A DNA stretch of 64,000 nucleotides from an uncultured Christensenella sp. (GTDB lineage Bacteria > Bacillota > Clostridia > Christensenellales > Borkfalkiaceae): the NCBI GenBank assembly GCA_910585785.1, contig CAJUEV010000008.1, forward strand, positions 682 to 64,681, in the 5' to 3' direction. The notes beneath the pieces are model-generated. The model had not been told where the DNA came from and did not search any database. It saw only the letters and a list, made by a program, of their open reading frames with translations. How positions within the stretch are numbered: position 1 is the stretch's first letter; each line of letters starts with the position of its first letter. This document shows, piece by piece, positions 2,672-18,215 of the stretch. A program made the translations under genes and the position numbers.

Positions 2672-2917
2672 TTAAACTTCCGCAGGGGGATTGTTTTGTT
2701 TTGAACGCCACAGCGAGCAGCCCTTTTCAAACGGAAACCCCACCGTTTTGCTTGTCACAACGCATCTTTTGCAATGCCCGCAGGCAATCGCCTTGTACCC
2801 GCCACCCTCGTTTACGTAGTATTGCAAAAAATACCCGCACGTTTTGCACGATTTTTCAATTTTTTCCATAACCCGACCCATATACGCGATTCGCGTTTTT
2901 GTTTTGAATTGTACCAC
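2672..2917 (-). CDS. Small Cys-rich (zinc-ribbon-like) hypothetical protein; start uncertain (2917, 2881 or 2869)
   Basis: ORF with CKTCGYF...CGHCKRC cysteine pairs. No clear RBS at any candidate start. The 5' end overlaps the operator-like repeats. Confidence 0.35.
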   Translation of the reverse strand: MVQFKTKTRIAYMGRVMEKIEKSCKTCGYFLQYYVNEGGGYKAIACGHCKRCVVTSKTVGFPFEKGCSLWRSKQNNPPAEV

Positions 2918-2947
2918 GCGTTTCGCGGACTGTCAACGCGTTTCGCG
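2884..2947. promoter_or_regulatory. Three copies of ACGCG(A/T)TTCGCG in the divergent control region upstream of the XRE array
   Basis: ACGCGATTCGCG at 2884-2895, ACGCGTTTCGCG at 2916-2927 and again at 2936-2947. The last two are exact copies 20 bp apart, with TGTCAAC between them. Confidence 0.5.
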
Positions 2948-2969
2948 TATTTGATGATAAAATCTTTTT

Positions 2970-3170
2970 ATGATTTTTAAAAGCAGATTAAAAGAAATAC
3001 GCATTGAAAAGGGGCTTACCCAAAAAGAAGTTGCCGCCGCGTTGGAAATTTCGGTAAGTTGTTACGGCGGATACGAGCAAGGTTACCGCGAACCCGATTT
3101 AAAAACCCTAATAAAAATATGTAAAATGTTTGAAATATCATCAGACTATATACTTGGGCTGGAAGATTGA
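2970..3170 (+). CDS. XRE-family HTH protein, tandem paralog 1 (66 aa)
   Basis: LKEIRIEKGLTQKEVAAALEISVSCYGGYEQG is a classic Cro/CI-type HTH. No obvious SD; a TAAAAT hexamer lies 6 nt upstream of the ATG. Confidence 0.8.
   Translation: MIFKSRLKEIRIEKGLTQKEVAAALEISVSCYGGYEQGYREPDLKTLIKICKMFEISSDYILGLED
2998..3106 (+). repeat. 109-bp exact direct repeat, copy A (inside XRE paralog 1)
   Basis: TACGCATTGAAAAGGGGCTTACCC...CCCGATTTAAAAAC is identical to 3435-3543 (offset 437 bp). Confidence 0.9.
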
Positions 3171-3200
3171 AAACAAAACTCTAATTTAAAAATATTAAAT

Positions 3201-3398
3201 ATGTACGGACAGAGATTAAAAGAAATACGTCAGGAAAAAGGGCTTACGCAAACAAAACTTGCACAAATGCTTTCCACCACCCAAAGCACCGTAGGAAAAT
3301 ACGAAAGAGAAGAAATTCAGCTTACCGTAGACGTTATTATAAAAATATGTAAAATGTTTGAAATATCCTCCGACTATTTGCTTGGTTTGGAAGACTGA
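3201..3398 (+). CDS. XRE-family HTH protein, tandem paralog 2 (65 aa)
   Basis: LKEIRQEKGLTQTKLAQMLSTTQSTVGKYERE HTH. The C-terminus KICKMFEISSDYLLGLED is identical to paralog 3. Confidence 0.8.
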   Translation: MYGQRLKEIRQEKGLTQTKLAQMLSTTQSTVGKYEREEIQLTVDVIIKICKMFEISSDYLLGLED

Positions 3399-3403
3399 AT
3401 TAT

Positions 3404-3607
3404 ATGAGCAAGTTTACAAGCAGATTGCGTGAATTACGCATTGAAAAGGGGCTTACCCAAAAAGAAGTTGCCGCCGCGTTGGAAATTTCGGTAAGTTGTT
3501 ACGGCGGATACGAGCAAGGTTACCGCGAACCCGATTTAAAAACACTAATAAAAATATGTAAGATGTTTGAAATATCCTCCGACTATTTACTTGGTTTGGA
3601 AGACTGA
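3404..3607 (+). CDS. XRE-family HTH protein, tandem paralog 3 (67 aa)
   Basis: Central region identical to paralog 1; C-terminus identical to paralog 2. Confidence 0.8.
   Translation: MSKFTSRLRELRIEKGLTQKEVAAALEISVSCYGGYEQGYREPDLKTLIKICKMFEISSDYLLGLED
3435..3543 (+). repeat. 109-bp exact direct repeat, copy B (inside XRE paralog 3)
   Basis: Identical to 2998-3106. First mismatch is at 3107/3544. Confidence 0.9.
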
Positions 3608-3645
3608 AAAGCGGAGAGCGATTGTTTTTGACAATCCTCTCCGCT
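3606..3645 (-). terminator. Intrinsic terminator downstream of mntP (also closes the XRE array)
   Basis: AGCGGAGAG (3610-3618) pairs with CTCTCCGCT (3637-3645), plus an inner stem GATTGT/ACAATC. On the minus strand it is followed by TTTTCAG. Confidence 0.6.
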
Positions 3646-3694
3646 ATATTAAAACGCAGCTTTCCGCAAAATTTACGGAAAGGCGAACGCCGGC

Positions 3695-4279
3695 TTAAAC
3701 CCCGCTTAAAAACATTTCCGCCGCCATTATTATAAAAATCACGCCGCCTGCAATTGACGCGCCTCCGACAAAAACATTGCCGAACTTGCGCCCGACAAAG
3801 TGCCCCGCGGCATACGCGGCAAAGGTTATCAGCGAAATAATAGCCGAGCCGATAAGCGCGGTCTGCCAACCGTAGCCCGCTATTGCCAACCCGACCGAAA
3901 GCGCGTCTACCGAAGTTGCCATTGCCTGAACAAGCAACGGCGCGCATTTGCTTTCTTTACTTACAATAAGCGGCTGGGGCTGTTTTTTAAGCCCTTCCGC
4001 AACCATCTTAATACCCAAAAACAGCAACACCGCCAGCGCGGCGACAGCCAGCAACTCCTCAATAACCGCAAACCTTTGCGCAACGGTTTTTACAAGCAGC
4101 CACCCAGCCAGCGGCGCAATAAACTGAAAAACGGCAAACAACGCCGCGTCCGCGCACAACTTACCGCGCTTTATCCGCGTGCCGCTCATTCCGTTTGAAA
4201 GTGAAATCAAAAACGCGTCAACCGCCAATCCCAGACCGAACAGGACGCTGCTCAACAAAAACGTTAAACCGCCAGCCAT
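3695..4279 (-). CDS. mntP: Manganese efflux pump MntP family
   Basis: Hydrophobic protein of about 194 aa. LGLAVDAFLISLSNGM and ATSVDALSVGLA are the duplicated MntP-type motifs. The start is set at MAGGLTF (ATG 4279), preceded by GGAGGAAGCG. Confidence 0.8.
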   Translation of the reverse strand: MAGGLTFLLSSVLFGLGLAVDAFLISLSNGMSGTRIKRGKLCADAALFAVFQFIAPLAGWLLVKTVAQRFAVIEELLAVAALAVLLFLGIKMVAEGLKKQPQPLIVSKESKCAPLLVQAMATSVDALSVGLAIAGYGWQTALIGSAIISLITFAAYAAGHFVGRKFGNVFVGGASIAGGVIFIIMAAEMFLSGV

Positions 4280-4656
4280 CGCTTCCTCCAAAGTAACTTT
4301 GACGGCGCAAGAAGGCGCGCCGCTTTTGCTTCGGCAAAAATAATTCAATCTGTGTATTATATGAAGTTTGCGGCAAAATAGGTTACACCAAATTTGCCCC
4401 TTTACGCTTAAAAATTGAAAAGTTTTATTTAAGTAATAAAAACTTCGGTTTTGAAAGGTACTATTTTCAACCAGCGAAAAACCTTTTATAAAAGCAATTT
4501 AAACGTTATCCCCCATAATATGCGCCGTTTTAGCGCATTTTTAAACAAATTTAATCACCCAACGCAAAACAAACGCGTAAAGACTTTTTCAATTACGCAA
4601 AAAACGCTTGTAATTTAATTGCCCGCGTGATATACTGCGATTAACGAGGTAAAACA

Positions 4657-5457
4657 ATGTCAAAAAAATTACTTACAATGCAGGATTTATCCTGCGTGGG
4701 ACAGTGCTCGCTTACGGTTGCCCTGCCCATATTATCCGCTTACGGGCTTGAAACCTGCGTTCTGCCGACGGCGGTGCTTTCCAACCACACTATGTTTGAA
4801 ACGTGGAGCTATCTTGATTTAACCAACGAACTGCCCAACATTTTCGACAAATGGAAGAAAAATAATTTTAAGTTTGACGCCTTCCTTCTGGGGTATCTCG
4901 GCAAAGCCGATTTAATGGAACTTGCCAAGCAGTGCTTCGCTCAATTTTCAAACGACGGCGCAAAAATAATTATCGACCCCGTCTTCGGCGACAACGGAAA
5001 ACTTTACGGCGGGTTCGACTTAAACTACGTTGCCGAAATGCGCAAATTGCTTAAATATGCCGATATAATTTTGCCCAACGTCACGGAAGCGTGCTTTTTG
5101 ACGGGAACGGAATACGTTGCCGATTATGACTTCAACCTTATTGTCACGCTTGAACGCGAACTTAAAAAAATTACCGACGCAAAAATTATTATTACGGGCG
5201 TTGAAATCGGCGGAAACATCGGCGAGGTTATCTCCGGCAACAAGAAAGGCGAAATTTTATGGCACGAACTGCTGCCCGTTAAAAAGCACGGCACGGGCGA
5301 CATTTTCGCTTCGGTATTCACGGCAAATTATTTGCGCGGGAAAAATTTGCGCGACTGCTGCAACGCGGCAGCGAAATTTGTTGCCGACTGCATTAAAAAA
5401 ACCGACGAGGCGCATTTTTACGGCGTCGATTTTGAAAAAGTGCTAAACTCAAAATAA
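4657..5457 (+). CDS. pdxK: Pyridoxamine/pyridoxal kinase (PdxK/PdxY ribokinase-like family)
   Basis: N-terminus LLTMQDLSCVGQCSLTVALPILSAYGLETCVLPTAVLSNHT and C-terminal GTGDIFASVF motif. RBS GAGG lies upstream. Confidence 0.8.
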   Translation: MSKKLLTMQDLSCVGQCSLTVALPILSAYGLETCVLPTAVLSNHTMFETWSYLDLTNELPNIFDKWKKNNFKFDAFLLGYLGKADLMELAKQCFAQFSNDGAKIIIDPVFGDNGKLYGGFDLNYVAEMRKLLKYADIILPNVTEACFLTGTEYVADYDFNLIVTLERELKKITDAKIIITGVEIGGNIGEVISGNKKGEILWHELLPVKKHGTGDIFASVFTANYLRGKNLRDCCNAAAKFVADCIKKTDEAHFYGVDFEKVLNSK

Positions 5458-5470
5458 ATTTATAAACTAA

Positions 5471-5506
5471 CCCCCTTGCCGCCTTTTCGGCAGGGGGATT
5501 TTTTTA
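5471..5506 (+). terminator. Intrinsic terminator after pdxK
   Basis: CCCCCTTGCCG...CGGCAGGGGG stem followed by ATTTTTTTATTTT. Confidence 0.75.
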
Positions 5507-5677
5507 TTTTTATATTGCATAAAGTATTTTTTTATGATAAAATATTGTTAAAGTATAAATTGAATTTATCAGTTAAACGCCTGAAAATTCAAGTCAACTA
5601 TTTGCAGGCGACGCTTCGGTTAAACGCGCGATAAAATTTTTGGACGTACTTTGTAAAAAAATTCAAGGAGAAACCAA

Positions 5678-7449: not shown

Positions 7450-7524
7450 TGGGGTGTCGCCAAGCGGTAAGGCAACGGACTCTGACTCCGTCATTCGTTG
7501 GTTCAAATCCAGCTACCCCAGCCA
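7450..7524 (+). tRNA. tRNA-Gln (anticodon CTG)
   Basis: Cloverleaf folded by hand. Acceptor TGGGGTG/TACCCCA (U1-A72, as in bacterial tRNA-Gln). Anticodon stem ACGGA/TCCGT, loop CTCTGAC. T-arm GTTGG-TTCAAAT-CCAGC. Encoded CCA. Confidence 0.9.
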
Positions 7525-7528
7525 CAGA

Positions 7529-7584
7529 CACTATATATTGTAGGTTCTAAAAATAAGAACACAATATATAGTGTTTTGTTTTTT
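7529..7584 (+). terminator. Intrinsic terminator after tRNA-Gln (13-bp perfect stem)
   Basis: CACTATATATTGT (7529-7541) pairs with ACAATATATAGTG (7561-7573), followed by TTTTGTTTTTT. Confidence 0.8.
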
Positions 7585-7608
7585 AGCAAAAATGGCTGGA
7601 AACCCCGA

Positions 7609-7629
7609 TTTGGGAGTAAATTTGGGAGT
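7609..7629 (+). repeat. TTTGGGAGT x2 (candidate integrase arm-type sites, left end)
   Basis: TTTGGGAGT at 7609-7617 and 7621-7629. The same motif recurs at the right end of the island. Confidence 0.5.
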
Positions 7630-7658: not shown

Positions 7659-8864
7659 TCATTCTTCCCCAAAATCCCATTTTAAGTAATTTACTTTCTC
7701 CGCCTCGCGCAACTGAAATTCTTCCGAATAATGCGTGTAAACGGTAGTCGTAATCGTTCCGCTTAACGAATGCCCCGCCCAAATACTGACGACTTCGCTT
7801 AAAACGCCGCTTTCTTTGCTCCTGCTGATGAACGTATGTCTTAACTCGTGGGAGTGGTGATTCGGGAACAACCTTTTCATTGTAGTCTGCAACGTACTTA
7901 AGTTTACGCGCTTCGCCTTTTCAAAGTCGATATACGGCAATACTTGTTTCATCATCGGCGTAATAGGTATTTTGCGTTTTACAACGTTTTTACCCATACG
8001 CTCTTTGCTTGTTTCGCATTCGAGCCAAACACCGTCTATTACGTTTATGCTTGCAAGTTCGCTACGTCTAAGCCCTGCGTACAACAACACGAGAAAGGCG
8101 TGAGCGGTATCTTTTTTGAGATTTGCAAGGCAATGATTGACAAGCTTCTTTTCTTCCTCGTAGGTAAAAGCCGTTCCAACCTTGCTTTGATAGTTTGGTA
8201 CGACAACCTTTTTCATCGGTGTGGGGATGTTGTAGTCCTCCGCAATCATATCGAAAATACAACGTAGCAAGAGAAATAGTTTGTGCGACGTATGTAAAAC
8301 ACCTTTTTGAACGTAGGTTAAAAGGAAGTTCTGCAACATACATCTGTCTATCTCTATTGCCTTCATTTCTCCGAATGTGGGCAGAATGTCGCGATTTAAT
8401 AATCGTAAGTATTCATTGCAAGTCGATTGCTTTGTCGTAACCTTCTTAATGTTCAACCACTCGTCGGCGTATTCCGCAAAGGTCTTGTCCTTTTTATCGG
8501 ATTTTTCGTCTTTGTGATTAAGTTTATCGATAAATTTCTGTTTGAGTTTAGTTAAATCTTTGGACGAAACCTCTATGTCAATTCCCTGTCTATGGAATCT
8601 GGCTTCGTACACCCCGTCCTTTCTTAGACGGTAGTGAACTATCATATTGTTCGTCGCAAAAACATTTTTGTAGTTAATCGGCATCTGTGAAATCTCCTTT
8701 TTTGTAAATTTCAGCACACCCCGACGATTTTCAACTTTACTCTTTTCTGCTATGGGACCTAAACCCGCCAACACCTGCTTGTAAAGCTCATTTTGCTTTT
8801 TCAAAGCTTCAAGCAACTGCTGTACAGAATCGTCCGTTTGAATTGTGTTAGTTTGTTGTTTCAA
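7659..8864 (-). CDS. int: Tyrosine-type site-specific integrase
   Basis: 401 aa. Catalytic signature: AGLRRSEL (Arg), HELRHTF (H-x-x-R), LSGTITTTVYTHY (Tyr). Adjacent to the tRNA. TTG start. Confidence 0.9.
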   Translation of the reverse strand: MKQQTNTIQTDDSVQQLLEALKKQNELYKQVLAGLGPIAEKSKVENRRGVLKFTKKEISQMPINYKNVFATNNMIVHYRLRKDGVYEARFHRQGIDIEVSSKDLTKLKQKFIDKLNHKDEKSDKKDKTFAEYADEWLNIKKVTTKQSTCNEYLRLLNRDILPTFGEMKAIEIDRCMLQNFLLTYVQKGVLHTSHKLFLLLRCIFDMIAEDYNIPTPMKKVVVPNYQSKVGTAFTYEEEKKLVNHCLANLKKDTAHAFLVLLYAGLRRSELASINVIDGVWLECETSKERMGKNVVKRKIPITPMMKQVLPYIDFEKAKRVNLSTLQTTMKRLFPNHHSHELRHTFISRSKESGVLSEVVSIWAGHSLSGTITTTVYTHYSEEFQLREAEKVNYLKWDFGEE

Positions 8865-9668: not shown

Positions 9669-10601
9669 TTAATCTTCTGTTTCGTAATAGTAGGAATAGT
9701 CTATACCTTTCATAAACATTTCACGGTTGTCAATTTCGTCTGTAAGCGCACTGCTGATAAGTGCAAGAATATCGGTATAATCCGCAGGACTTTTCTGCAT
9801 TGCTGTAAGATACGCCCGCTTGTCTATCTTGCTCCAATCTACGCATTTGCGCAAATTCTTTTTCAAAATTAAGTCAAGCCAGATTCTCGTACTTCTGCCG
9901 TTACCCTCCATAAAGGGATGAGCGACGTTCATTTCTACATACTTCTTAACAATGTTTTCAATCGTATCTTCCGGCATCTTGTCAATGATTGCAAGGTTTT
10001 CTTTTAAATACATTGACGGGGCAAACGCAAAGCCGCCTTTTGCAATGTTCAAGCTGCGAATTTTCCCTGCAAAATCGTAAAGCCCGCCAAAAATATATCC
10101 GTGAATTTGTTGTAAACCTTTCGTCGTTCCCACTTCGATTTCGTCTATCAAACCGTTTTCAAGGAGTTCGTAAGCCTTTTGTTTACTCTTTTCGTCTAAC
10201 GTACTGCCGATTCCTTTTACCCATCTGGAAAAGTTCTCTTTGTTTTTTGCAGGTATGAGCGCAGTAATAAGAGTAACGCCGTCTTCGTCCACGACGTCGG
10301 TAAGGTATGACTTCCCGTCGTTTGCCTTCAATTTCAGTTGTTTGCAAATTGCAATCAACTGAGTATTTCGGCGTTTCATTGTTGCCCAATAAACACGCGG
10401 ATTACTGCTTTTTGTCAACGCCTCGGCAATATCCATAGCGCAAAACCACCATTTGGAACTCTCATCATCCCAAACAGCTCTAACTGGAATATTCTCAAAA
10501 AATCTAATTGACGTTTTTATCATGGCAATTTGATCCGTGCGCTTTTTCTTTATTCTATCATAAAAATTAAATTCTTGCAATCTGTTCAAACGCATTTCCA
10601 A
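9669..10601 (-). CDS. Fic/DOC family protein with an N-terminal Bro-N/DinD-like domain
   Basis: Fic motif [13 protein letters not shown]-terminus [31 protein letters not shown] resembles Bro-N DNA-binding domains. Start uncertain (10601 TTG, 10595 ATG or 10523 ATG). Confidence 0.8.
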
Positions 10602-10623
10602 ATAAGATGTTTTTCTGGTTTTA

Positions 10624-10652
10624 TTGACAATAAACTCTAATTATGCTATAAT
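10624..10652 (+). promoter_or_regulatory. Consensus sigma-A-type promoter for the XRE/nuclease/R-M operon
   Basis: TTGACA (10624-10629), 17-bp spacer, TATAAT (10647-10652). ATG of the XRE gene is at 10677. Confidence 0.75.
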
Positions 10653-10676
10653 ATGTTATAATTTGATAGGTATATT

Positions 10677-10880
10677 ATGGAATTCTCAAAATTCTGCCTT
10701 GAAACAAGGCTAAAACTCAATTTAAGTCAGGAAATGTTGGCGCGAAAGCTCGACGTTTCTTTTGCTACAATCAACCGCTGGGAGAACGGCAAAGCCCTTC
10801 CCCAGAAACTGACCCTATACCGTTTTGAAAAGTTCTGCGAAGAAAACGGTATAGAATTTGTTGCAAATTTGACTCTTTGA
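10677..10880 (+). CDS. XRE-family HTH regulator (possible controller protein of the operon)
   Basis: LNLSQEMLARKLDVSFATINRWENGKALP is a typical HTH_3 motif. First gene after the consensus promoter. Confidence 0.8.
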   Translation: MEFSKFCLETRLKLNLSQEMLARKLDVSFATINRWENGKALPQKLTLYRFEKFCEENGIEFVANLTL

Positions 10881-10905
10881 AAATTTAACGTGCGAGGAAA
10901 TTATT

Positions 10906-11736
10906 ATGGCTACTAGTAAGAAACTTGAAATTATATATTACAACGGACAACCTGACGGTGTGCGTTCTGTCCGTCGTCATCTGTCTACAATTACTACTTA
11001 TGTTATACCGCGTCCTTTACTTTCGGAGGCAGAGAAAATTTCGGGTATTACAAGACCCGGCATTTATTATCTGATTAACGATAACGATGAAAATAAGATT
11101 GCACAAATCTATATCGGGCAGACGCGCAACGGTGTTACACGCCTTGATGACCATAACCGTTCCAAAGATTTCTGGAATAAAGCGATTATGTTTCTTGCTG
11201 ACAACAAGACTTTTTCGCTTGATATGATAAGCGGACTTGAAGAATACGCCATTATCAAAGCTCACGAAGCAAAGCGTTATAAGGTTGAAAATTCAGTTAA
11301 GCCAAAATATGAGATTGACGAATACGACCTTCCCTCTATTGAGGAAGTCTACGACGAAATTCAGTTCGTTATGGCAACGCTCGGCTACAAGATGAACGAT
11401 GCAAAACAGACCAGAAACGAATCTGAAATTTTTCACACAACACGCAACGGAATTACCGCTTACGGTATTTATAGCGGCGATAAGTTTCAGGTATTGGAAG
11501 ACTCAGAAATCAATATTACAAAACCTGTCAGTCTTCCTAAATACAATAGGCAGCGTGAAGAGCTGTTGCAAAAAGGAGATATAAGCGTTAATGGCAAGAA
11601 ATACGTTCTGAATGTAATTTTGGAATTCAATACCCCGAGCGGTGCAAGTGATTTTGTTCTTGGCGGTTCCACTAACGGCTGGATTGAATGGAAAAACAAA
11701 AATGGAAAGACATTAGACGAAATTTATAGAAAATAA
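10906..11736 (+). CDS. GIY-YIG nuclease-domain protein with C-terminal DUF4357-like domain
   Basis: GIYYLINDNDENKIAQIYIGQT...RLDDH (GIY...YIG...R). The C-terminus SGASDFVLGGSTNGWIEWKNKNGKTLDEIY matches the DUF4357 pattern often found beside R-M methyltransferases. Confidence 0.75.
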   Translation: MATSKKLEIIYYNGQPDGVRSVRRHLSTITTYVIPRPLLSEAEKISGITRPGIYYLINDNDENKIAQIYIGQTRNGVTRLDDHNRSKDFWNKAIMFLADNKTFSLDMISGLEEYAIIKAHEAKRYKVENSVKPKYEIDEYDLPSIEEVYDEIQFVMATLGYKMNDAKQTRNESEIFHTTRNGITAYGIYSGDKFQVLEDSEINITKPVSLPKYNRQREELLQKGDISVNGKKYVLNVILEFNTPSGASDFVLGGSTNGWIEWKNKNGKTLDEIYRK

Positions 11737-11744
11737 TTTTTATA

Positions 11745-11763
11745 TATGACTATATATGTCATA
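11745..11763. promoter_or_regulatory. Palindromic operator TATGAC-N7-GTCATA (copy 2), just upstream of mod
   Basis: (A)TATGACTATATATGTCATA(T). Located 37 nt before the mod ATG, next to a TATAAT hexamer at 11775-11780. Confidence 0.55.
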
Positions 11764-11799
11764 TTATTAGGTTTATAATAGATTAACAAGGATTTAAAA

Positions 11800-13404
11800 A
11801 TGAGTACAAATATCTCCAAAGAAAAAAGAGAAAATCTTATAGGTAAAATAAAAGCTATACGCGAGTATATTGCTGCCGCACCGCAAGATGAAAATACGGG
11901 AAATCTTTTAACGTATCTTTCTGAAATTGAAAAAGATATAAAAGGAAAGAAATACGGCTTAGTGTTTGAAGAACACCGTGAAAGCATAGATGATATTCTT
12001 GCTACTCACACTCCCGTTCTTTCAGAAGATACAGATTTATTAATTGATAATGGTGGTCAAATGAACTTCCTTATTGAAGGAGATAATTTGGCTTCTTTAC
12101 AGCTTCTCGAAAAAACCCATAAAGGTAAAATAGATTTAATTTACATAGATCCCCCTTACAATACAGGGAACAAAGATTTTATCTATAACGATAGCTTTGT
12201 TAATGGTGATGATGAATTCCGGCATAGCAAATGGGCATCTTTCATATACAAACGCTTATCAATCGCAAAACGACTTCTCTCACATAAAGGAATGATTTTT
12301 ATAAGCATTGACGACAACGAAGTCTATTCATTAAAATTTATTTGTGATAGTATTTTCGGAGAAAACAATTATATTTCATCTATTGTTTGGAAAAGAAAGA
12401 GAGGTCGAGATAATTCAGCAAAATGGGTTAGCAAAGCACATGAATATCTTCTTGTTTACGCAAATAGAAAAGAAAACTGTACATTGAACTATTTAGAATT
12501 AGATGAGGAAACCAAGAAAGCCTATAAAAACCCAGATAACGATCCTCGCGGTATTTACCGTATGTTGGGTTGTTGGGCCAGAGGAACTCAAGGTGGAGTT
12601 AAATATGATTTCACTACTAAAGATGGAAAATATTTTTCTGAACGGTTATGGCTTTTCAGTAAAGAAAATTTGAGAAAATTAGATGAAAATAATAAATTAA
12701 TTATACGCGGAGAAAACATTTATCGAAAAATGTTCATCTATGAAAATAAAGGCAAAATAGCTGATTCTGTTTGGGATGATGTATCTAACGCTGCAAATGC
12801 GTCTGATGAGATTAAGAGTATTTTTAATAATATAGCTTTTGATACAGCTAAGCCTATCCCCTACATAAAACGAATAATTCAGTTAGCATCATCAAAGAAC
12901 TCAATTATTCTTGATTTCTTTGCTGGCAGTGGGACAACAGGGCACGCCATTATGAAGCTTAATGCTGAAGATGAAGGAAATAGAAAATTTATCTTGTGTA
13001 CTAACAACGAAAACAATATTTGTCGCAATATAACTTATGAACGCATTAAACGTGTTATTGATAAGGAAATTTATAGTGCAAGTTTAAAGTATTACAAAGT
13101 TGACTATGTTCCCATCTCCGATAAACTCTACTATGAGTACGCAGACGAACTATTAAAGCATATTAGAGAACTTGTTGAACTTGAAAACGGAGTAAACTTT
13201 AAAGGCAACAATGAAATAGCTATATTACTTACAGAAGATGAAGTTAACGCCTTTGTATCCGACGAAGATAAACTTAAAGTTTGCAAAAAAGTATATATTG
13301 GACACGATGTGCTTTTGGACGGTAATCAAGAATATATACTTGAGCAAAACAAAATTGAATTGAACATTATTCCTGAATATTATTACAAGGAATTGGAGGC
13401 TTAA
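11800..13404 (+). CDS. mod: Type III R-M DNA methyltransferase (Mod, N6-adenine/N4-cytosine beta class)
   Basis: Motif IV IYIDPPYNTG precedes motif I DFFAGSGTTGHA (beta-class order), with a central variable region. RBS AAGGA. Confidence 0.9.
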   Translation: MSTNISKEKRENLIGKIKAIREYIAAAPQDENTGNLLTYLSEIEKDIKGKKYGLVFEEHRESIDDILATHTPVLSEDTDLLIDNGGQMNFLIEGDNLASLQLLEKTHKGKIDLIYIDPPYNTGNKDFIYNDSFVNGDDEFRHSKWASFIYKRLSIAKRLLSHKGMIFISIDDNEVYSLKFICDSIFGENNYISSIVWKRKRGRDNSAKWVSKAHEYLLVYANRKENCTLNYLELDEETKKAYKNPDNDPRGIYRMLGCWARGTQGGVKYDFTTKDGKYFSERLWLFSKENLRKLDENNKLIIRGENIYRKMFIYENKGKIADSVWDDVSNAANASDEIKSIFNNIAFDTAKPIPYIKRIIQLASSKNSIILDFFAGSGTTGHAIMKLNAEDEGNRKFILCTNNENNICRNITYERIKRVIDKEIYSASLKYYKVDYVPISDKLYYEYADELLKHIRELVELENGVNFKGNNEIAILLTEDEVNAFVSDEDKLKVCKKVYIGHDVLLDGNQEYILEQNKIELNIIPEYYYKELEA

Positions 13405-13406
13405 AT

Positions 13407-15599
13407 ATGGCAATACAATTGAAAAACTTCCAACTTAAAGCAGTTGATTCGCTAATGGATGCAATGCACAACGATAAAAGAGAAATCATATTAAAAAGCT
13501 GCACCGGTAGCGGTAAAACAATAATTTTAACACACTTTATCAATACATATATGCGGAGTTTTGGAAATACCGTATTTGTTTGGCTTACACCAGGTAAAGG
13601 CAATTTGGAAGAACAAAGCAAAGAGAAAATGGATCAATACATATACGGTGCCTCTACTAAATTGTTATGCGATGTTATGACAAGCGGATTTAATGCAGGC
13701 GATTCGTGTTTTATTAACTGGGAAAAACTAACAAAAAAAGGAAATACCGCCCTGCGCGATAGCGAAAGAACCAATTTCCTTGAACATATAGAAAAAGCTT
13801 TAGATTCTGGCATTACTTTCAAAGTAATCGTCGACGAATCCCACCAAAACGATACAATTAAAGCGGATGAAATTATCGAATATTTCAAGACAGATAAGAT
13901 CGTCCGTTGTTCTGCCACACCTAAACCTTACAGAAATGCGTTTACAGTAGAAGTTCCTGAAGAAGACGTAATCGCTGAAGGATTAATTAAAAAACTATTG
14001 ATTATCAATGAAAACTTTGAACAGAATATAACGGTTGATGACCAAATTACTTACCTAATTGATAAAGCACTTGATAAGCAACGAGAACTACATTCTGCCT
14101 TTTTAAGATTAAAAGCGAATATCAACCCTCTTATTGTTGTTCAACTTCCTAATAAGTCGGATGCATTGTTAGAAAGTGTTGAAAGATATTTCAACAGCAA
14201 AGGAATTTCATACGAAAATAATCAACTGGCAGTTTGGCTTTCTGATAAAAAACAAAACCTTGAAAATATTGTTCAACCTAATGCTACCCCCATTGCCGTT
14301 ATAATAAAACAAGCTGTTGCTACTGGTTGGGATTGCCCTCGCGCTCATATACTTGTCAAGCTACGCGATAATATGAGTGAAACGTTTGAAATTCAAACTA
14401 TTGGGCGAATTCGTAGAATGCCAGAAGCTAAGCACTATGAAAACGATTTGCTTGACAGTTGCTATCTCTATACACTTGACGGAGCTTTTACTGAGAGTGT
14501 TAAACAATCATTAGGAAAAGGCGCGCTTGATGCAAGAAAATTGTTATTAAAACCAGAACATCGAGCTTTTACAATTATTACTGAATACAAGACAGATGTT
14601 CCCTTCCCAAGAGATGCGGCTTTAACTTTACGAGTATTCAGCGAACACTTCAAAACAAAATATAGTCTAACAGGAAAACTTTTAGAGAACAAAACTAAGC
14701 TACAGGCATGCGGCTTTAACTTTAGTCAAGATATCGTTGACTATACAAAATCAGGATCAGTATCAAAATTAGAAAAAGAGCAGATTGACGACTTAAATGC
14801 TATTTCCATACATGAGGAACTTAACACAACTAAACACGGCAGAGATTATCATCACTGTGTGTCGGAAATCGGCTTAAAGGTTACTTTAGATTATTCTAGA
14901 ATAAACACTGTTGTAAGAAAACTTTTCCTTAAAGATTTGCGCAGTGATTATAAAGTGCTTGGATTAGAGATTCGAGAGCTGTATTCTTTCGTTATCAACA
15001 ATAAAGAACGTTTAATTGCCGAGATACGAGAAGCGATGTCGTCCACTATGCTTCAACAGTCGCTCAAGGTAAATAATATTACTGAGAAACCTCTTTCGTT
15101 CCCGTTAGAATATTTATTTACTTATGACGGAACGGCTAAAGTACAAACCGAGCTTACAAAAAACGTTTATAAAGGTTATTTGGTTTCTGCCGAAAAACGC
15201 TCGGCTTCGGAAAAATTATTTGAAAAGTTTTGCGAAAGTAGCAAGAACGTTGACTGGTTTTATAAAAACGGTGATAAGGGTGCAGAATATTTCTCGATCG
15301 TTTATGAAGATAATTTAGGAAAGCAAAAATCCTTTTATCCCGATTACATAATATCCATCAACGGAAAAATTTGGATTATCGAAACGAAAGGTGGCTTTAC
15401 CAAATCTGGCGAAAGTGAAGATATTGATAAATACACCGGTAAGAAATTTGAAGTGTTAAAACACTATTTGAACAAGTATGATTTAAAAGGCGGTATCGTA
15501 AGACAAGATAAACAAAGCTTTGAATTATGCATTTGTACTGACACATACTCCGACGACATCAAAAGTGATGCATGGAAGGTTTTAAGCGAGATTTTATAA
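13407..15599 (+). CDS. res: Type III restriction enzyme Res subunit (SF2 helicase + PD-(D/E)xK nuclease)
   Basis: Walker A CTGSGKT, DEAH-like VDESHQ, QTIGRIRR (motif VI), and C-terminal YPDYIISINGKIWIIETKG nuclease motif. Starts 2 nt after mod. Confidence 0.9.
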   Translation: MAIQLKNFQLKAVDSLMDAMHNDKREIILKSCTGSGKTIILTHFINTYMRSFGNTVFVWLTPGKGNLEEQSKEKMDQYIYGASTKLLCDVMTSGFNAGDSCFINWEKLTKKGNTALRDSERTNFLEHIEKALDSGITFKVIVDESHQNDTIKADEIIEYFKTDKIVRCSATPKPYRNAFTVEVPEEDVIAEGLIKKLLIINENFEQNITVDDQITYLIDKALDKQRELHSAFLRLKANINPLIVVQLPNKSDALLESVERYFNSKGISYENNQLAVWLSDKKQNLENIVQPNATPIAVIIKQAVATGWDCPRAHILVKLRDNMSETFEIQTIGRIRRMPEAKHYENDLLDSCYLYTLDGAFTESVKQSLGKGALDARKLLLKPEHRAFTIITEYKTDVPFPRDAALTLRVFSEHFKTKYSLTGKLLENKTKLQACGFNFSQDIVDYTKSGSVSKLEKEQIDDLNAISIHEELNTTKHGRDYHHCVSEIGLKVTLDYSRINTVVRKLFLKDLRSDYKVLGLEIRELYSFVINNKERLIAEIREAMSSTMLQQSLKVNNITEKPLSFPLEYLFTYDGTAKVQTELTKNVYKGYLVSAEKRSASEKLFEKFCESSKNVDWFYKNGDKGAEYFSIVYEDNLGKQKSFYPDYIISINGKIWIIETKGGFTKSGESEDIDKYTGKKFEVLKHYLNKYDLKGGIVRQDKQSFELCICTDTYSDDIKSDAWKVLSEIL

Positions 15600-15611
15600 G
15601 AGGTATAACAA

Positions 15612-16529
15612 ATGAAAGCTCCAAATAAGAATGTTCCTATTTACGTTTATTATGTAACAATTGAAAAACAGAAAAGTTCTACGGCAGCTTCTTCCAAATA
15701 TGATATGGGAGAAATAGTCAATGCCTTTACAAAGGTGTTACGATTTACTATTTCGCAAGAATTAACCGAACGTAAAATTGATAATACTGCAGCGGATAAA
15801 ATAATTTGGCTTGACGATTTTAAGGATTTAGAGAATGGAAATTATAATCTTATTTTCAAATCTGCTAAATATAATCATGTCCGAAATGAAATTGATACGG
15901 TAAATATGACTCCTTTAGGTCAGCGCAAACGTCCACAGGATGGCGATGAAGAAAAAACGCATCTGTGTATTCGCTTAGCGGATGGACAAATGAGATTTCT
16001 TGCTATTCATGAAAGCAATCATTATGGCATTTCTATTAAAGGAATCGTTGATTACTTAAATTCTCAATTTGAAAAGCTGAATGAACAAGACGAGCAAGAA
16101 GCATTTTATCGAGCTTCTTATGAAATTGTACCAAGTGAAGAGTTTTTGACACGGTTGAAAAAAGCTAAAACGATGCACGCAATGCGACTTGAGGTAGATA
16201 GAGAAGTATTTAAAGATGACTTTTGGTCATTATCTGGAAGAAACGATATTAGAGAAACTGTTGAAGTCGTTTTAAAACGCCCTAAGGGAACTAAAATTTT
16301 TCCGGAAAATTTAATTAAAGCGTATTATGATAATATGCAAAGCGACAGTCGAATAAAAAGTATAACCGTAAGTGGTCGTGGCTCAGCCAATGATACTATG
16401 GAAATTTCAACTGATTTGATTAAAATGAAGCATTGTATTTCAGTTGAGTGCGAGGATGTAACATTCGAAGTCCGTAGCTCTGACTTCTTTTTAAAAGCAC
16501 AAGGTTTTATAGATAATATGTCGAGGTAA
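15612..16529 (+). CDS. Hypothetical 305-aa soluble protein (no family recognised)
   Basis: RBS AGAGG. Starts 12 nt after the res stop. Charged and two-lobed, with acidic linker EKLNEQDEQEA. AT-rich composition like the rest of the island. Confidence 0.75.
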   Translation: MKAPNKNVPIYVYYVTIEKQKSSTAASSKYDMGEIVNAFTKVLRFTISQELTERKIDNTAADKIIWLDDFKDLENGNYNLIFKSAKYNHVRNEIDTVNMTPLGQRKRPQDGDEEKTHLCIRLADGQMRFLAIHESNHYGISIKGIVDYLNSQFEKLNEQDEQEAFYRASYEIVPSEEFLTRLKKAKTMHAMRLEVDREVFKDDFWSLSGRNDIRETVEVVLKRPKGTKIFPENLIKAYYDNMQSDSRIKSITVSGRGSANDTMEISTDLIKMKHCISVECEDVTFEVRSSDFFLKAQGFIDNMSR

Positions 16530-16533
16530 AGTT

Positions 16534-17064
16534 ATGAAAAGACTATTTTTACCGATTGTCGATTATTTTCGCACAAGACGGAAAGTCATATTGAAGTTTA
16601 TAGCTCCGATAATTTGTTCAGGAATTTTCATAGGATTATCTTTTTTGATTCCCCTACAAGAAGATGCTAACATTCCACAGATTTTTTCAGATTTCATTAA
16701 TGCTTTAATAAGTATCGTTGCAATTTTTATTTCATTTTCAATCGCCATTATTTCAATTTTGGTGTCTGCCGATAACCCTAATATACAGCGATTGAGAGAA
16801 ATGCAGTCAAAAGATGGTTCAATGAAAGAATTAAACGGAAAGCCGCTGACTCTATTTCAAGTCTTACTTTCCAATCTTGCTTACAATGTGTTTATTGAAG
16901 TTCTATTCTTAGTAGTACTTATTGTGTATTTACTTATCAAAGCTGTAATTCCCGAAGTAGCTATCCGATATTTAATTGCATTTGGGGTTTTTGGCATTGT
17001 TCATATTTTACTAATTCTTTTGGAAACAGTTGTGCAAATGTATCACACATTTTGGCAAAATTAA
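16534..17064 (+). CDS. Hypothetical 176-aa membrane protein (four hydrophobic helices, 2+2)
   Basis: Starts 4 nt after the upstream stop; GAGG lies upstream. Hydrophobic segments at about residues 19-41, 50-79, 105-135 and 143-167. Confidence 0.7.
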   Translation: MKRLFLPIVDYFRTRRKVILKFIAPIICSGIFIGLSFLIPLQEDANIPQIFSDFINALISIVAIFISFSIAIISILVSADNPNIQRLREMQSKDGSMKELNGKPLTLFQVLLSNLAYNVFIEVLFLVVLIVYLLIKAVIPEVAIRYLIAFGVFGIVHILLILLETVVQMYHTFWQN

Positions 17065-17246
17065 AGAATCATTTAACAACCGATAATAAGATTATATTTG
17101 GACGTTTAATCTATAATAAAAAAGTGTCTGAATACAAAGAGCACAAAAAATTTTTTAATGAACTCGCTCAACAAGTTATTGATTTTTGCATAGCTAACGT
17201 AAAAGACTATCATATTAAAACAGGAACAATCAAAGAAGAAAATTAG
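17052..17246 (+). CDS. Questionable 64-aa ORF (TTG start, overlaps upstream gene by 13 nt)
   Basis: Open frame only. No ATG and no SD. Lys-rich and soluble. Confidence 0.3.
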   Translation: MAKLKNHLTTDNKIIFGRLIYNKKVSEYKEHKKFFNELAQQVIDFCIANVKDYHIKTGTIKEEN

Positions 17247-17287
17247 AATCTTAAGTTAAATATATACCAAAGAGGCAATTTATAAAA

Positions 17288-17950
17288 ATGTATAATTCAA
17301 TAAGTAGTGAATTTAAAGATAAGTCAAAATATCTTACAAATCAGACACTTTATATTGGTCTTCCGATTTTTTATTTTGGTGTAGGTGTTTTACTGGTTTA
17401 TTTATTAAAATGGGATATATTCAATCCTTTCTATTTATTTTTTGTGTTTTTCGGTGTAATAACATTTCTTATTCTAATTTCTTATTATGGATTAATACTA
17501 AAAACCGTAAAAAGTGAAAAAGAGTTTTCTTGGAAAAAAAGTTGGAGAATTCTTAAAATGATTAACTTTTACACTGAAACAGTACATAATAAAGATATTG
17601 ACTTATTAAAGAATATATTAAAAGACTATGGAGTTAATACAAGACCAAAGGTTTTAGAAGTATTAAGACATTACCAATGTTTATTGCCACGCAAAATTAT
17701 TAGTGGTGGGCATTTGCTTTCTATACTTGCGCTAACGATTGCTACTCTTGCACTATTATTTCAGGATAGTATATATAACTCTGAAAGCAAATTATTTATG
17801 GTTTTTTTTGTTATTCTAATGGTAATAGCCATATATATGTTAATAGATATTTTAAACAAAAACTTTTTTCGCGTATTAGGTGTAGATGCCTTAAACGAGC
17901 GCATTGAAATGGCGGTTTCAGAAATTTGGATCCATTCATTGATTAAATAG
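17288..17950 (+). CDS. Hypothetical 220-aa membrane protein (four hydrophobic helices around a ~65-aa polar insert)
   Basis: RBS AAAGAGG. Hydrophobic segments at about residues 20-40, 45-71, 139-157 and 168-189. Last gene before the operon terminator. Confidence 0.7.
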   Translation: MYNSISSEFKDKSKYLTNQTLYIGLPIFYFGVGVLLVYLLKWDIFNPFYLFFVFFGVITFLILISYYGLILKTVKSEKEFSWKKSWRILKMINFYTETVHNKDIDLLKNILKDYGVNTRPKVLEVLRHYQCLLPRKIISGGHLLSILALTIATLALLFQDSIYNSESKLFMVFFVILMVIAIYMLIDILNKNFFRVLGVDALNERIEMAVSEIWIHSLIK

Positions 17951-17967
17951 GATAATAATTAGGAAAC

Positions 17968-17996
17968 AAAATCGGGGCAAATGCCCCGATTTTTTG
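17968..17996 (+). terminator. Intrinsic terminator closing the island operon
   Basis: AAAATCGGGGC-AAAT-GCCCCGATTTTTT. Confidence 0.85.
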
Positions 17997-18065
17997 TATG
18001 TTTTTTGCCTCTTAAATGGTCATTTTTTAGCAGAAAAGTTGAACGAAAAGGACAATTAGTCCGTC

Positions 18066-18120
18066 ACTCCCAAAAAATAGGGAGGTTTTTGGGAGTAAAG
18101 TTTTGAAAATCGTTTGGGAG
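18066..18120. repeat. TTTGGGAG motif cluster at the right island end
   Basis: ACTCCCAAA (inverted, 18066-18074), TTTGGGAGT (18088-18096) and TTTGGGAG (18113-18120). The first two form a hairpin. Confidence 0.5.
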
Positions 18121-18186
18121 CGCAATATATTGTGTTTTTTATTCTTTGCAACTACTATATATTGTTGTTGCTATTTTAATTAAGTC

Positions 18187-18215
18187 CTCTGACTCCGTTG
18201 TTTATTGTTTCAACC
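18187..18215 (+). other. Degenerate tRNA-Gln 3'-half remnant (attR-like)
   Basis: CTCTGACTCCGT is identical to tRNA positions 7480-7491. The following TGTTTATTGTTTCAACC aligns with CATTCGTTGGTTCAAATCC of the intact tRNA at roughly 70 percent identity (by eye). Confidence 0.55.

Follow-up and report, generated by a model that had tools for sequence, protein, structure and literature searches.

A predicted RexAB-type gene pair in a mobile Type III restriction-modification cassette of gut Clostridia

The DNA analysed here, a stretch of 64,000 nucleotides from an uncultured Christensenella sp. (contig CAJUEV010000008.1; hereafter the window), harbors a Type III restriction-modification (R-M) operon, and directly behind its res gene lie two genes which we call A and B. 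Our data indicate that A and B likely constitute an abortive-infection (Abi) module of the RexA/RexB type, for which we infer a function triggered by phage, and that the pair is firmly joined to mod and res in a cassette of four genes, mod-res-A-B, of which it forms the 3' half. Judged by synteny, all four genes appear to travel together from one integrative island to another in gut Clostridia. An earlier note on this DNA had grouped A and B with two further open reading frames (ORFs), C and D, into a candidate new membrane-effector defence module; the pair is instead best described as a system of the RexAB type. The four genes of the cassette are:

11800-13404, + strand: mod, a 534-amino-acid Type III methyltransferase with a swappable target-recognition domain
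13407-15599, + strand: res, a 730-amino-acid Type III-like restriction subunit, directly upstream of A
15612-16529, + strand: A, 305 amino acids, ATG start, 12-nucleotide gap after the res stop (15599), from the six-frame ORF list
16534-17064, + strand: B, 176 amino acids, ATG start, 4-nucleotide gap after A

Resemblance of A and B to RexA and RexB

The protein A had been considered unplaceable in any family, and scans of A, B, C and D against Pfam, NCBIfam, PADLOC and PHROGs indeed returned no named family. The same holds for the Pfam and NCBIfam scans of 44 diverse members of the A family, and the PHROGs family matched by A itself, phrog_4672 (4e-19), has no known function. The comparison of structures, in contrast, did place the protein. 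The AlphaFold model of A (predicted local distance difference test score, pLDDT, of 74; predicted template modelling score, pTM, of 0.70) is built of alternating beta and alpha elements, and a Foldseek search of the Protein Data Bank (PDB) gave two matches with E below 1e-3 and no others, both to chains of 8TWQ, the structure of lambda RexA (E 2.7e-7 and 2.4e-6, prob 1.0); no ImmA/IrrE, KwaB or other fold of the PDB reached this threshold. Among viral models A matched only uncharacterised proteins of gut siphoviruses, the best of them from the uncultured phage ctylc9, and the A homolog of Roseburia phage Jekyll has been deposited as 'RexA-like protein'. The model presents A as a soluble two-domain protein with a RexA-like fold. 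RexA is a two-domain DNA-binding dimer with flexible hinges (PMC11077077), and by analogy A is probably a DNA-binding dimer as well, switched on in infection.

The family of A is large: an exhaustive profile search collected 410 clusters at 50% identity, and a separate search gave 260 close homologs of the window protein. The polar residues conserved family-wide are S84, K86, Y87, K106, [DE]110-G-[DE]112, E114, T116, H117 and E134. Three other residues, R128, H133 and H137 (window 15993-16022), are found in 21 of 21 R-M-linked A proteins and in none of 104 other family members, which carry E at 128, L, F or I at 133 and R, K or Y at 137; their fixation could reflect shared ancestry or a function specific to the clade. 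Both the string RFLAIH, which begins at R128, and the acidic linker EKLNEQDEQEA are present in A as had been described. HEPN was rejected as an identity for A, in agreement with the earlier note, on the ground that R128 is replaced by E in most of the family.

The same segment invites another reading, in which A would be a zinc metallopeptidase of the ImmA/IrrE family and B its membrane partner or substrate. The residues HESNH (133-137) form a HExxH string in all 21 members of the R-M-linked clade, Pfam Peptidase_M78 aligns with residues 121-194 at E 0.0056, and MCI8368669.1, which falls into the same 90%-identity cluster as A, bears the nr name 'ImmA/IrrE family metallo-endopeptidase'. However, the Peptidase_M78 score of 16.9 bits stays below the gathering threshold of 22, HExxH occurs in 0 of the 104 more distant family members, the motif sits in the model at the end of a beta-strand (strand/loop) and not in a helix, and Foldseek found no peptidase at E <1e-3. 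We consider a peptidase highly improbable; the clade-specific HExxH string is probably what lies behind the NCBI name.

The protein B consists of four predicted transmembrane (TM) helices in a 2+2 arrangement, as does D, which is how both had been described before. Its AlphaFold2 model (pLDDT 83.5) shows four long helices, and the counts of lysine plus arginine (5 in the N-terminus, 0 in loop 1 and 5 in the central loop) follow the positive-inside pattern, so that the N-terminus and the central loop between TM2 and TM3 are predicted to be cytoplasmic and the topology to be N-in/C-in. The central loop is the most conserved segment of the protein; it bears an invariant SADNxNI motif, and A79, D80 and N83 are invariant. 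A database search returned 61 homologs, and phrog_4613, again a family without known function, was matched at 1e-9. The top structural match of B in BFVD is a 165-amino-acid protein of mycobacteriophage Sbash (prob 0.99, E 0.1), and gp31 of that phage, the validated RexB analogue, also has 165 amino acids; the second BFVD match comes from the uncultured phage ctylc9, the source of the best viral match of A. Sbash gp31 shows the same topology pattern, and its defence is lost when the central loop is mutated (PMC6426596). We regard B, on the basis of its model, as a RexB-like four-helix inner-membrane protein and propose it as the effector of the pair.

The architecture of lambda RexA/RexB agrees with that of A and B in several respects. 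In both cases a soluble two-domain protein of about 280-305 amino acids directly precedes a small four-TM protein in the same order, the membrane protein of lambda has cytoplasmic termini and a basic central loop like B, and homologous A-B pairs occur, like RexAB, in temperate-phage or prophage genomes. A small co-oriented four-TM partner was found downstream of the RexA-like gene in the window (after the 4-nucleotide gap) and at all loci where this could be checked, and this partner is, by prediction, of the N-in/C-in type with a conserved cytoplasmic TM2-TM3 loop. There is, however, no significant sequence similarity to lambda RexA or RexB, A is 26 and B 32 amino acids longer, and A-B does not stand beside a CI repressor but in a Type III R-M operon on a Clostridia tRNA-Gln island. 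The location typical of lambda, in the immunity region of a temperate phage with co-expression with the repressor, was not found among the phage relatives either, which adjoin lysis or terminase genes.

Sbash gp30/gp31, CarolAnn gp44/gp43 and RexABpp of P. putida were all assigned to Rex by fold or HHpred together with architecture, as is done here. These actinophage and P. putida systems share with B a four-TM partner whose central cytoplasmic loop is functionally critical; the actinophage RexA-like proteins are longer than A (337-372 versus 305 amino acids), and none is linked to R-M. Sbash gp30 and gp31 and CarolAnn gp44 have no Pfam match at all. Since the RexA and RexB models of Pfam miss these validated Sbash and CarolAnn proteins, 'Rex-like' is in practice a structural and architectural class. 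An article of January 2026 (PMC12894663) counts five described Rex-like systems, all of them prophage-encoded two-gene units, and in four of the five the membrane protein is the effector.

The roles of A and B might also be exchanged. According to the same article, gp30/gp31 of mycobacteriophage Butters is a Rex-like pair that works by a reversed logic (PMC12894663), and by that logic A would be the growth-arresting effector, for instance a DNA-binding toxin, while B would be a membrane anchor that sequesters A until infection. The polar residues conserved throughout the A family could then mark an active or binding site. Against such an exchange stand the majority of membrane effectors among the described systems, the failure of Foldseek to find an enzyme fold for A, and the conservation of B, which is as tight as that of A and tightest in the cytoplasmic loop, as fits a regulated effector. 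We hold the reversed logic to be unlikely.

Two further systems deserve comparison. The PADLOC candidate PDC-M53 (A about 324 and B about 188 amino acids) fits A-B in gene sizes and order. The match of A to PDC-M53A is weak (3e-4, residues 49-163 only), one PDC-M53A model matches up to 6 of the 44 diverse A-family members (best 2.3e-7), again weakly and in part, and the window B does not match PDC-M53B, to which one distant B member aligns at 1.2e-4. PDC-M53 is a computational candidate only, without a described function or a recorded link to R-M, and a literature search for an operon of R-M and Rex genes or for the function of PDC-M53 found nothing relevant. Kiwa likewise comprises two genes, a four-TM KwaA of about 200 amino acids and a soluble KwaB of about 310 amino acids (DUF4868). 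We rejected A-B as Kiwa: the gene order is reversed, neither PADLOC Kiwa nor Pfam DUF4868 is matched, and Foldseek is significant only for RexA.

The mod-res-A-B cassette

The first two genes of the cassette carry the marks of a Type III R-M system, namely an N6/N4 Mod upstream of res and a Res with superfamily 2 (SF2) helicase motifs and a C-terminal PD-(D/E)xK nuclease motif. Mod is matched over its full length by PADLOC MTase_III (1e-118) and by Pfam N6_N4_Mtase at 7e-40, and its DPPY motif precedes FAGSGTTG. Res is matched by Pfam ResIII (1.2e-17) and, in part, by PADLOC REase_III (3e-14); the helicase motifs GSGKT and DESH and the C-terminal YPDYII...IIETKG of PD-(D/E)xK type can be read in its sequence, and its C-terminus resembles the BPTD_3080 restriction endonuclease family. 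The resemblance to classical EcoP15I-like Mod2Res enzymes thus covers the order mod then res, a beta-class N6-adenine methyltransferase with a swappable target-recognition domain, and the combination of SF2 helicase motifs with a C-terminal PD-(D/E)xK in Res. In contrast to the classical systems, Res has only 730 amino acids and is too divergent for a sequence match in the PDB, where a search gave none, and two extra conserved genes follow res. As a separate observation, an exact 17-nucleotide direct repeat, ATGCGGCTTTAACTTTA, lies within res at 14614-14630 and 14708-14724, 94 nucleotides apart, possibly by chance.

A near-identical cassette at locus L077 (L077:5067-6794) allows a direct comparison of Mod. 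Both ends of the protein are about 90% identical to the window Mod, whereas the central region (about residues 185-360) is unrelated and the lengths differ (534 amino acids in the window, 575 in L077); the A proteins of the two cassettes are 96% identical. The sequences identify the difference as a swap of the target-recognition domain, which implies a different recognition sequence. Because the specificity domain has been swapped between near-identical cassettes, the comparison suggests that the R-M half is under active selection.

We surveyed the context of A at 44 loci, taking one genome per species and scoring Res upstream by tblastn; the contexts of divergent A homologs were sampled one by one. 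Almost all loci are from Clostridia (Lachnospiraceae, Oscillospiraceae) or Erysipelotrichaceae, Roseburia faecis, Ruminococcus bromii and Blautia among them. An intact Res lies directly upstream of A at 35 of the 44 loci, four loci begin so near A that the upstream gene is out of view, three are in decay with Mod fragments left, and the two most divergent (29% and 42% A identity) have no R-M operon in front. Relatives with an A identity of at least 45% share the mod-res-A-B arrangement; counted over informative species genomes, it is intact in 35 of 38 and present as remnants in 3 of 38. The cassette recurs at 45% A identity, and at 52% in an IMG/VR contig. Homologs of A with 58-66% identity always stand in a row of N6_N4_Mtase, ResIII (about 730 amino acids), A and B with unrelated flanks, and relatives 89% identical lie on another island in the order AbiEi/Eii-mod-res-A-B-HTH-MobL-integrase (HTH, helix-turn-helix). 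The flanks vary between AbiEi/AbiEii, SLFN with TIR, and XRE with GIY-YIG, and the last two genes are missing upstream of most mod-res-A-B cassettes. The survey of homologs that the earlier note had called for bears out co-occurrence for A with B and for mod-res-A-B, but not for C and D, which do not take part in it; by synteny, the conserved unit that had been missed is mod-res-A-B, with XRE and GIY-YIG as variable flanks.

The genes of the cassette have diverged together. Res proteins are 67-86% identical across cassettes, the pairwise distances of Res, A and B correlate with r 0.92-0.95 in 37 non-redundant cassettes (r 0.94-0.95 for Res versus A and B), and the junctions are short or overlapping. 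The cassettes are also seen in decay, and in several genomes the erosion has proceeded from the R-M side: L004 (7464-7793) has lost most of mod and retains res-A-B intact, L043 (7666-8798) has an N-terminal Mod fragment fused to a truncated A and keeps B, and only Mod and A fragments are left in L048 (7528-8372) and L051.

The pairing of A with B is obligate. A B-family protein follows A in every locus with sequence beyond an intact A, at a spacing of about 0-30 nucleotides and sometimes with an overlap, and the order holds down to 29% A identity across bacteria, phages and a plasmid (B profile E 1e-17 to 1e-80). The gene next to the distant A homologs, which share 36-48% identity with each other and 29-38% with the window, is likewise of the B family (profile E 1e-17 to 1e-46). 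These distant A-B pairs were found at the following sites:

a phage, between an ArpU-like gene and a terminase gene
Roseburia phage Jekyll, after holin and endolysin
Anaerostipes phages
a Monoglobus plasmid
IMG/VR contigs

The most divergent bacterial A-B pair sampled (L052:3925-9214; 29% identity) lies on a mobilisable element in a metagenome-assembled genome of Erysipelotrichaceae. Immediately upstream of it are a C5-methyltransferase that carries an HTH at its N-terminus and a convergent gene for 269 amino acids, likely a Type II R-M system, so that this pair too is near R-M but outside its operon.

The strict conservation of the mod-res-A-B block, its short or overlapping junctions and the co-divergence with Res would also suit accessory restriction subunits, with A-B tethering Mod-Res to the membrane at the point of DNA entry or controlling restriction (alleviation, protection of self DNA). 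In line with this view, Res is shorter and more divergent than classical Res, with its weak REase_III score and no PDB sequence match. Such a role is hard to reconcile with the A-B pairs that exist without R-M in phages, beside holin-endolysin or terminase genes, and on a plasmid. Furthermore, Res has complete helicase and PD-(D/E)xK motifs, and a 60%-identical Res occurs in an XRE-mod-res context without A-B; this explanation is quite unlikely. The latter locus, L063, is an IMG/VR contig in which the gene directly after res (L063:8209-9156) is HamA-like, as in Hachiman (Pfam HamA 1.9e-12), and a HamB, if there is one, would lie beyond the end of the contig. Various accessory defence genes seem to dock at the 3' flank of this Res clade.

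The mobility of the cassette raises one more alternative, that A-B is an addiction or stabilisation module which arrests or kills cells that lose the cassette. R-M systems behave selfishly, and decayed cassettes do exist (the four described above). PMC11077077 also mentions a report that lambda RexB modulates the degradation of antitoxins by ClpXP/ClpAP. Yet phage-borne A-B pairs occupy moron-like positions typical of lysogenic defence genes, and the described Rex-like systems are triggered by phage (PMC6426596; PMC12894663). The L043 cassette keeps B with a truncated A and gives no sign that the pair is needed for cassette stability. We regard addiction as very unlikely.

The island, its transcription signals, and the genes C and D

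The cassette of the window is part of an integrative island, whose remaining features are:

7450-7524, + strand: tRNA-Gln, left boundary (attL), start of the island of about 10.7 kilobases (kb)
7659-8864, - strand: integrase, adjoining tRNA-Gln
10624-10652, + strand: candidate operon promoter before the XRE gene, TTGACA-17-TATAAT with an extended -10 TG, by consensus match
10677-10880, + strand: XRE regulator, island backbone, outside the conserved cassette
10906-11736, + strand: GIY-YIG/DUF4357 protein (PADLOC PDC-S14), island backbone, outside the conserved cassette
17052-17246, + strand: C, 64 amino acids, TTG start, 13-nucleotide overlap with B
17288-17950, + strand: D, 220 amino acids, ATG start, 41-nucleotide gap after C
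17968-17996, + strand: intrinsic terminator at the end of the transcription unit, an 11-base-pair stem with 6 GC pairs followed by a T-run
18187-18213, + strand: partial copy (81%) of the 3' half of tRNA-Gln, likely right boundary (attR)

The island of about 10.7 kb is delimited by the tRNA-Gln gene with the integrase, by the partial tRNA copy and by the drop in GC content, which is 0.27-0.36 inside and 0.40-0.44 outside. Family and tRNA scans confirm tRNA-Gln, the integrase, Fic/Bro, XRE, GIY-YIG, Mod and Res, in agreement with the earlier description of an AT-rich tRNA-Gln integrative island. Three imperfect direct repeats (27 nucleotides at 81%, 20 at 85% and 15 at 93%) join the two ends of the island (7480-7623 and 18088-18213). 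Their order is reversed, D1-D2-D6 on the left and D6-D2-D1 on the right, whereas a simple att duplication would preserve it.

The ORF list and the sequence reproduce the coordinates, strand, gaps, ribosome-binding sites and res stop that had been given for the four ORFs, with Shine-Dalgarno sequences of the GAGG type ahead of A, B and D. Since homologs of conserved length exist for A, B and D (260, 61 and 28 in the database search), these three are more than chance ORFs. In a consensus scan, the promoter at 10624-10652 matched 12 of 12 positions and was the top + strand site in 9-19 kb, and no promoter-like site of at least 10/12 was present just upstream of A. The terminator scan of the + strand (10600-18000) agrees that the terminator at 17968, scored as a hairpin with a T-run at 17968-17993, is the only strong one; the sole other terminator-like site between 10652 and 17968 is a weak one at 11041-11060, within the GIY-YIG gene, and none separates B from D. 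With no strong promoter site upstream of A and only one weak internal terminator-like site, the genes from XRE through D appear to be transcribed as a single unit from the promoter at 10624 to the terminator at 17968, in line with the co-transcription suggested before. The only Rfam hit in 9-18.4 kb, to Leu_leader at 17919-17996, covers the terminator hairpin together with the 3' end of D; at 25.6 bits (gathering score 50; E 0.07) it was judged a chance match to a terminator-like structure.

The position of four same-strand ORFs between res and a single terminator, and the 2+2 TM layout of both B and D, are what speaks for A-B-C-D as one new four-gene module with two membrane effectors. Comparative data speak against it: no homolog of C or D adjoins any of the more than 45 other A-B pairs examined, and D was not seen with A-B outside this lineage. 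We give this grouping next to no credence, and the reasons differ for C and D.

The ORF C has a TTG start, no ribosome-binding site and no internal Met, its homologs are restricted to four near-identical loci (L077-L080), in which this interval is skipped by gene callers, and no family matched it in Pfam, NCBIfam, PADLOC or PHROGs. It is therefore not supported as a gene and is probably a non-coding tail of the cassette. We considered C as the scar of an AbiJ-like gene that precedes D in locus L071 and rejected this: the two show no similarity, and DNA homology with L071 begins only about 45 nucleotides before D.

D, on the other hand, belongs to a family of 28 homologs with 2+2 TM helices and a basic central segment of about 60 amino acids. 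Relatives of D are repeatedly the last gene of integrated elements beside chromosomal genes (L066-L070), in one case at the end of a Dam/DnaB-carrying element that adjoins Mntp/MgtE. The L071 island (2844-5638) carries XRE, GIY-YIG/DUF4357, an AbiJ-like gene (AbiJ_NTD4 and Abi_C) and then D; compared with the window (10677-17950), the identity is 93% for GIY-YIG/DUF4357, 85% for XRE and 61% for D, and DNA homology resumes about 45 nucleotides upstream of the D start. Because L071 carries XRE, GIY-YIG and D around a single AbiJ-like gene, we read XRE-GIY-YIG...D from this synteny as the island backbone and mod-res-A-B as exchangeable cargo between. The interval between the PDC-S14-type GIY-YIG gene and D is a hotspot for defence cargo. 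D is, on the same comparison, a real gene at the end of the island backbone, separate from the cassette and unlinked to A-B; superinfection exclusion would be a guess at its function. The 200-amino-acid gene after B in L002 was considered as a homolog of D and found not to be related.

Mechanism, counter-evidence and implications

The notion of an Abi-like second layer behind the R-M system, with a soluble sensor-like protein and a four-helix membrane protein, remains the best reading; what had to be abandoned is the pair of membrane effectors, D being unrelated. The mechanism which we propose is modelled on lambda, Sbash, CarolAnn and P. putida RexAB. A, as a probable dimer, would change its state during infection once it has bound a phage protein, DNA or an intermediate of protein and DNA, and the activated A would engage the cytoplasmic loop of B. 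Oligomers of B would then permeabilise or depolarise the membrane, so that ATP falls and both growth and phage development stop. In the simplest reading the operon would hold two layers, with restriction acting first and a Rex-type shutdown reserved for phage that gets through.

A layered arrangement of this kind has a precedent. The PrrC anticodon nuclease is embedded in the EcoprrI Type Ic R-M locus and serves as a back-up layer when restriction is countered; it is a tRNA nuclease kept latent by the R-M proteins and freed by a phage anti-restriction peptide. The likeness lies in an Abi effector that is wired into an R-M operon, while the addition here would be a Rex-type sensor with a membrane protein. 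We favour the view that the fixed linkage may reflect cross-talk between R-M and A-B. The signal for A would then be DNA or a protein-DNA intermediate that forms as Res acts on phage DNA or as restriction is prevented. A direct coupling to Res or Mod may be suspected from the strict linkage, from the co-divergence and from the substitutions of A that are specific to the clade.

A bolder version, which we regard as possible though doubtful, is abortive infection licensed by restriction, where the RexA-like A, rather than sensing phage by itself, would monitor the Type III enzyme and then open the RexB-like B. What A detects would be Res-Mod-DNA complexes stalled on unmethylated phage DNA, or DNA ends made there, or else the inactivation of Res-Mod by anti-restriction proteins. 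The decision between self and non-self, based on methylation, would thereby gate an Abi effector, and R128, H133 and H137 of A could mark the interface.

Several observations weigh against a RexAB-type module coupled to restriction. The TM-scores of A versus 8TWQ are low (0.29 and 0.31, root-mean-square deviation 18 A, from a model with pLDDT 74), which could reflect only partial similarity or a hinge motion of the two-domain protein, the flexible hinges of RexA being a possible explanation for a low global score. Pfam PF15969 and PADLOC RexA miss A and all 44 diverse relatives, although lambda RexA scores 1e-97 and 9e-110 with them, and Pfam PF15968 and PADLOC RexB miss B and its distant relatives. 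A profile of the 44 A members found nothing among PDB sequences. The hhalign comparison of the A family with a four-sequence RexA alignment (P 0.001, 176 columns, prob 21%; cross-controls P 0.3-0.8) gives a weak signal that favours the relation and exceeds the controls, but it is not significant alone, and a divergent A alignment reaches a prob of 5% with the single lambda RexA sequence. Two-sequence actinophage alignments gave nothing in hhalign, a comparison of low power, as the accepted relation of RexA and Sbash gp30 also scores nothing at such depth. For B, the profile scores lambda RexB at E 9, hhalign of the B family with RexB likewise gives a weak favourable signal that is not significant alone (P 0.005, prob 7%, cross-controls 0.3-0.8; 24 columns from the end of TM2 into the central loop), and the structural match to the Sbash protein has an E of only 0.1 in a class of folds, four-helix bundles, that is readily matched.

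The evidence from gene context has its limits as well. The distant A homologs are phage or plasmid genes without R-M, and the L063 operon has XRE-mod-res with a 60%-identical Res and lacks A-B, so that R-M does not need A-B. Linkage and co-divergence are equally expected from simple co-inheritance, so that a functional coupling to Res stays a proposal. The data themselves establish the gene structure, the likeness in fold, the obligate A-B pairing, the conserved cassette and its co-divergence; DNA binding by A, contact between A and B, the activation of B by A, damage to the membrane and a phage phenotype are argued by analogy with the described relatives. The RexAB-type reading of the pair nevertheless stays the likely one.

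Abortive infection of the RexAB type and Type III R-M are both known kinds of defence. What is new is a large A-B sequence family of the RexAB type that standard libraries of hidden Markov models do not assign to Rex, and the fixation of A-B in a mobile four-gene Type III R-M cassette. Nearly all sampled loci of the A family are from gut Clostridia and their phages. A misleading public annotation, that of an ImmA/IrrE peptidase, is corrected, and the family offers a new pair of models for defence-finder tools.

RexAB is the oldest known abortive-infection system, and we know of no established natural activator of RexA. The cassette provides a natural setting in which to ask whether a Rex-type sensor responds to the DNA intermediates of a defined nuclease, and it poses the question whether layered defences in one operon are additive or wired together. 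If abortive infection were indeed licensed by restriction, DNA-processing intermediates would be the long-sought natural trigger of Rex-type sensors.

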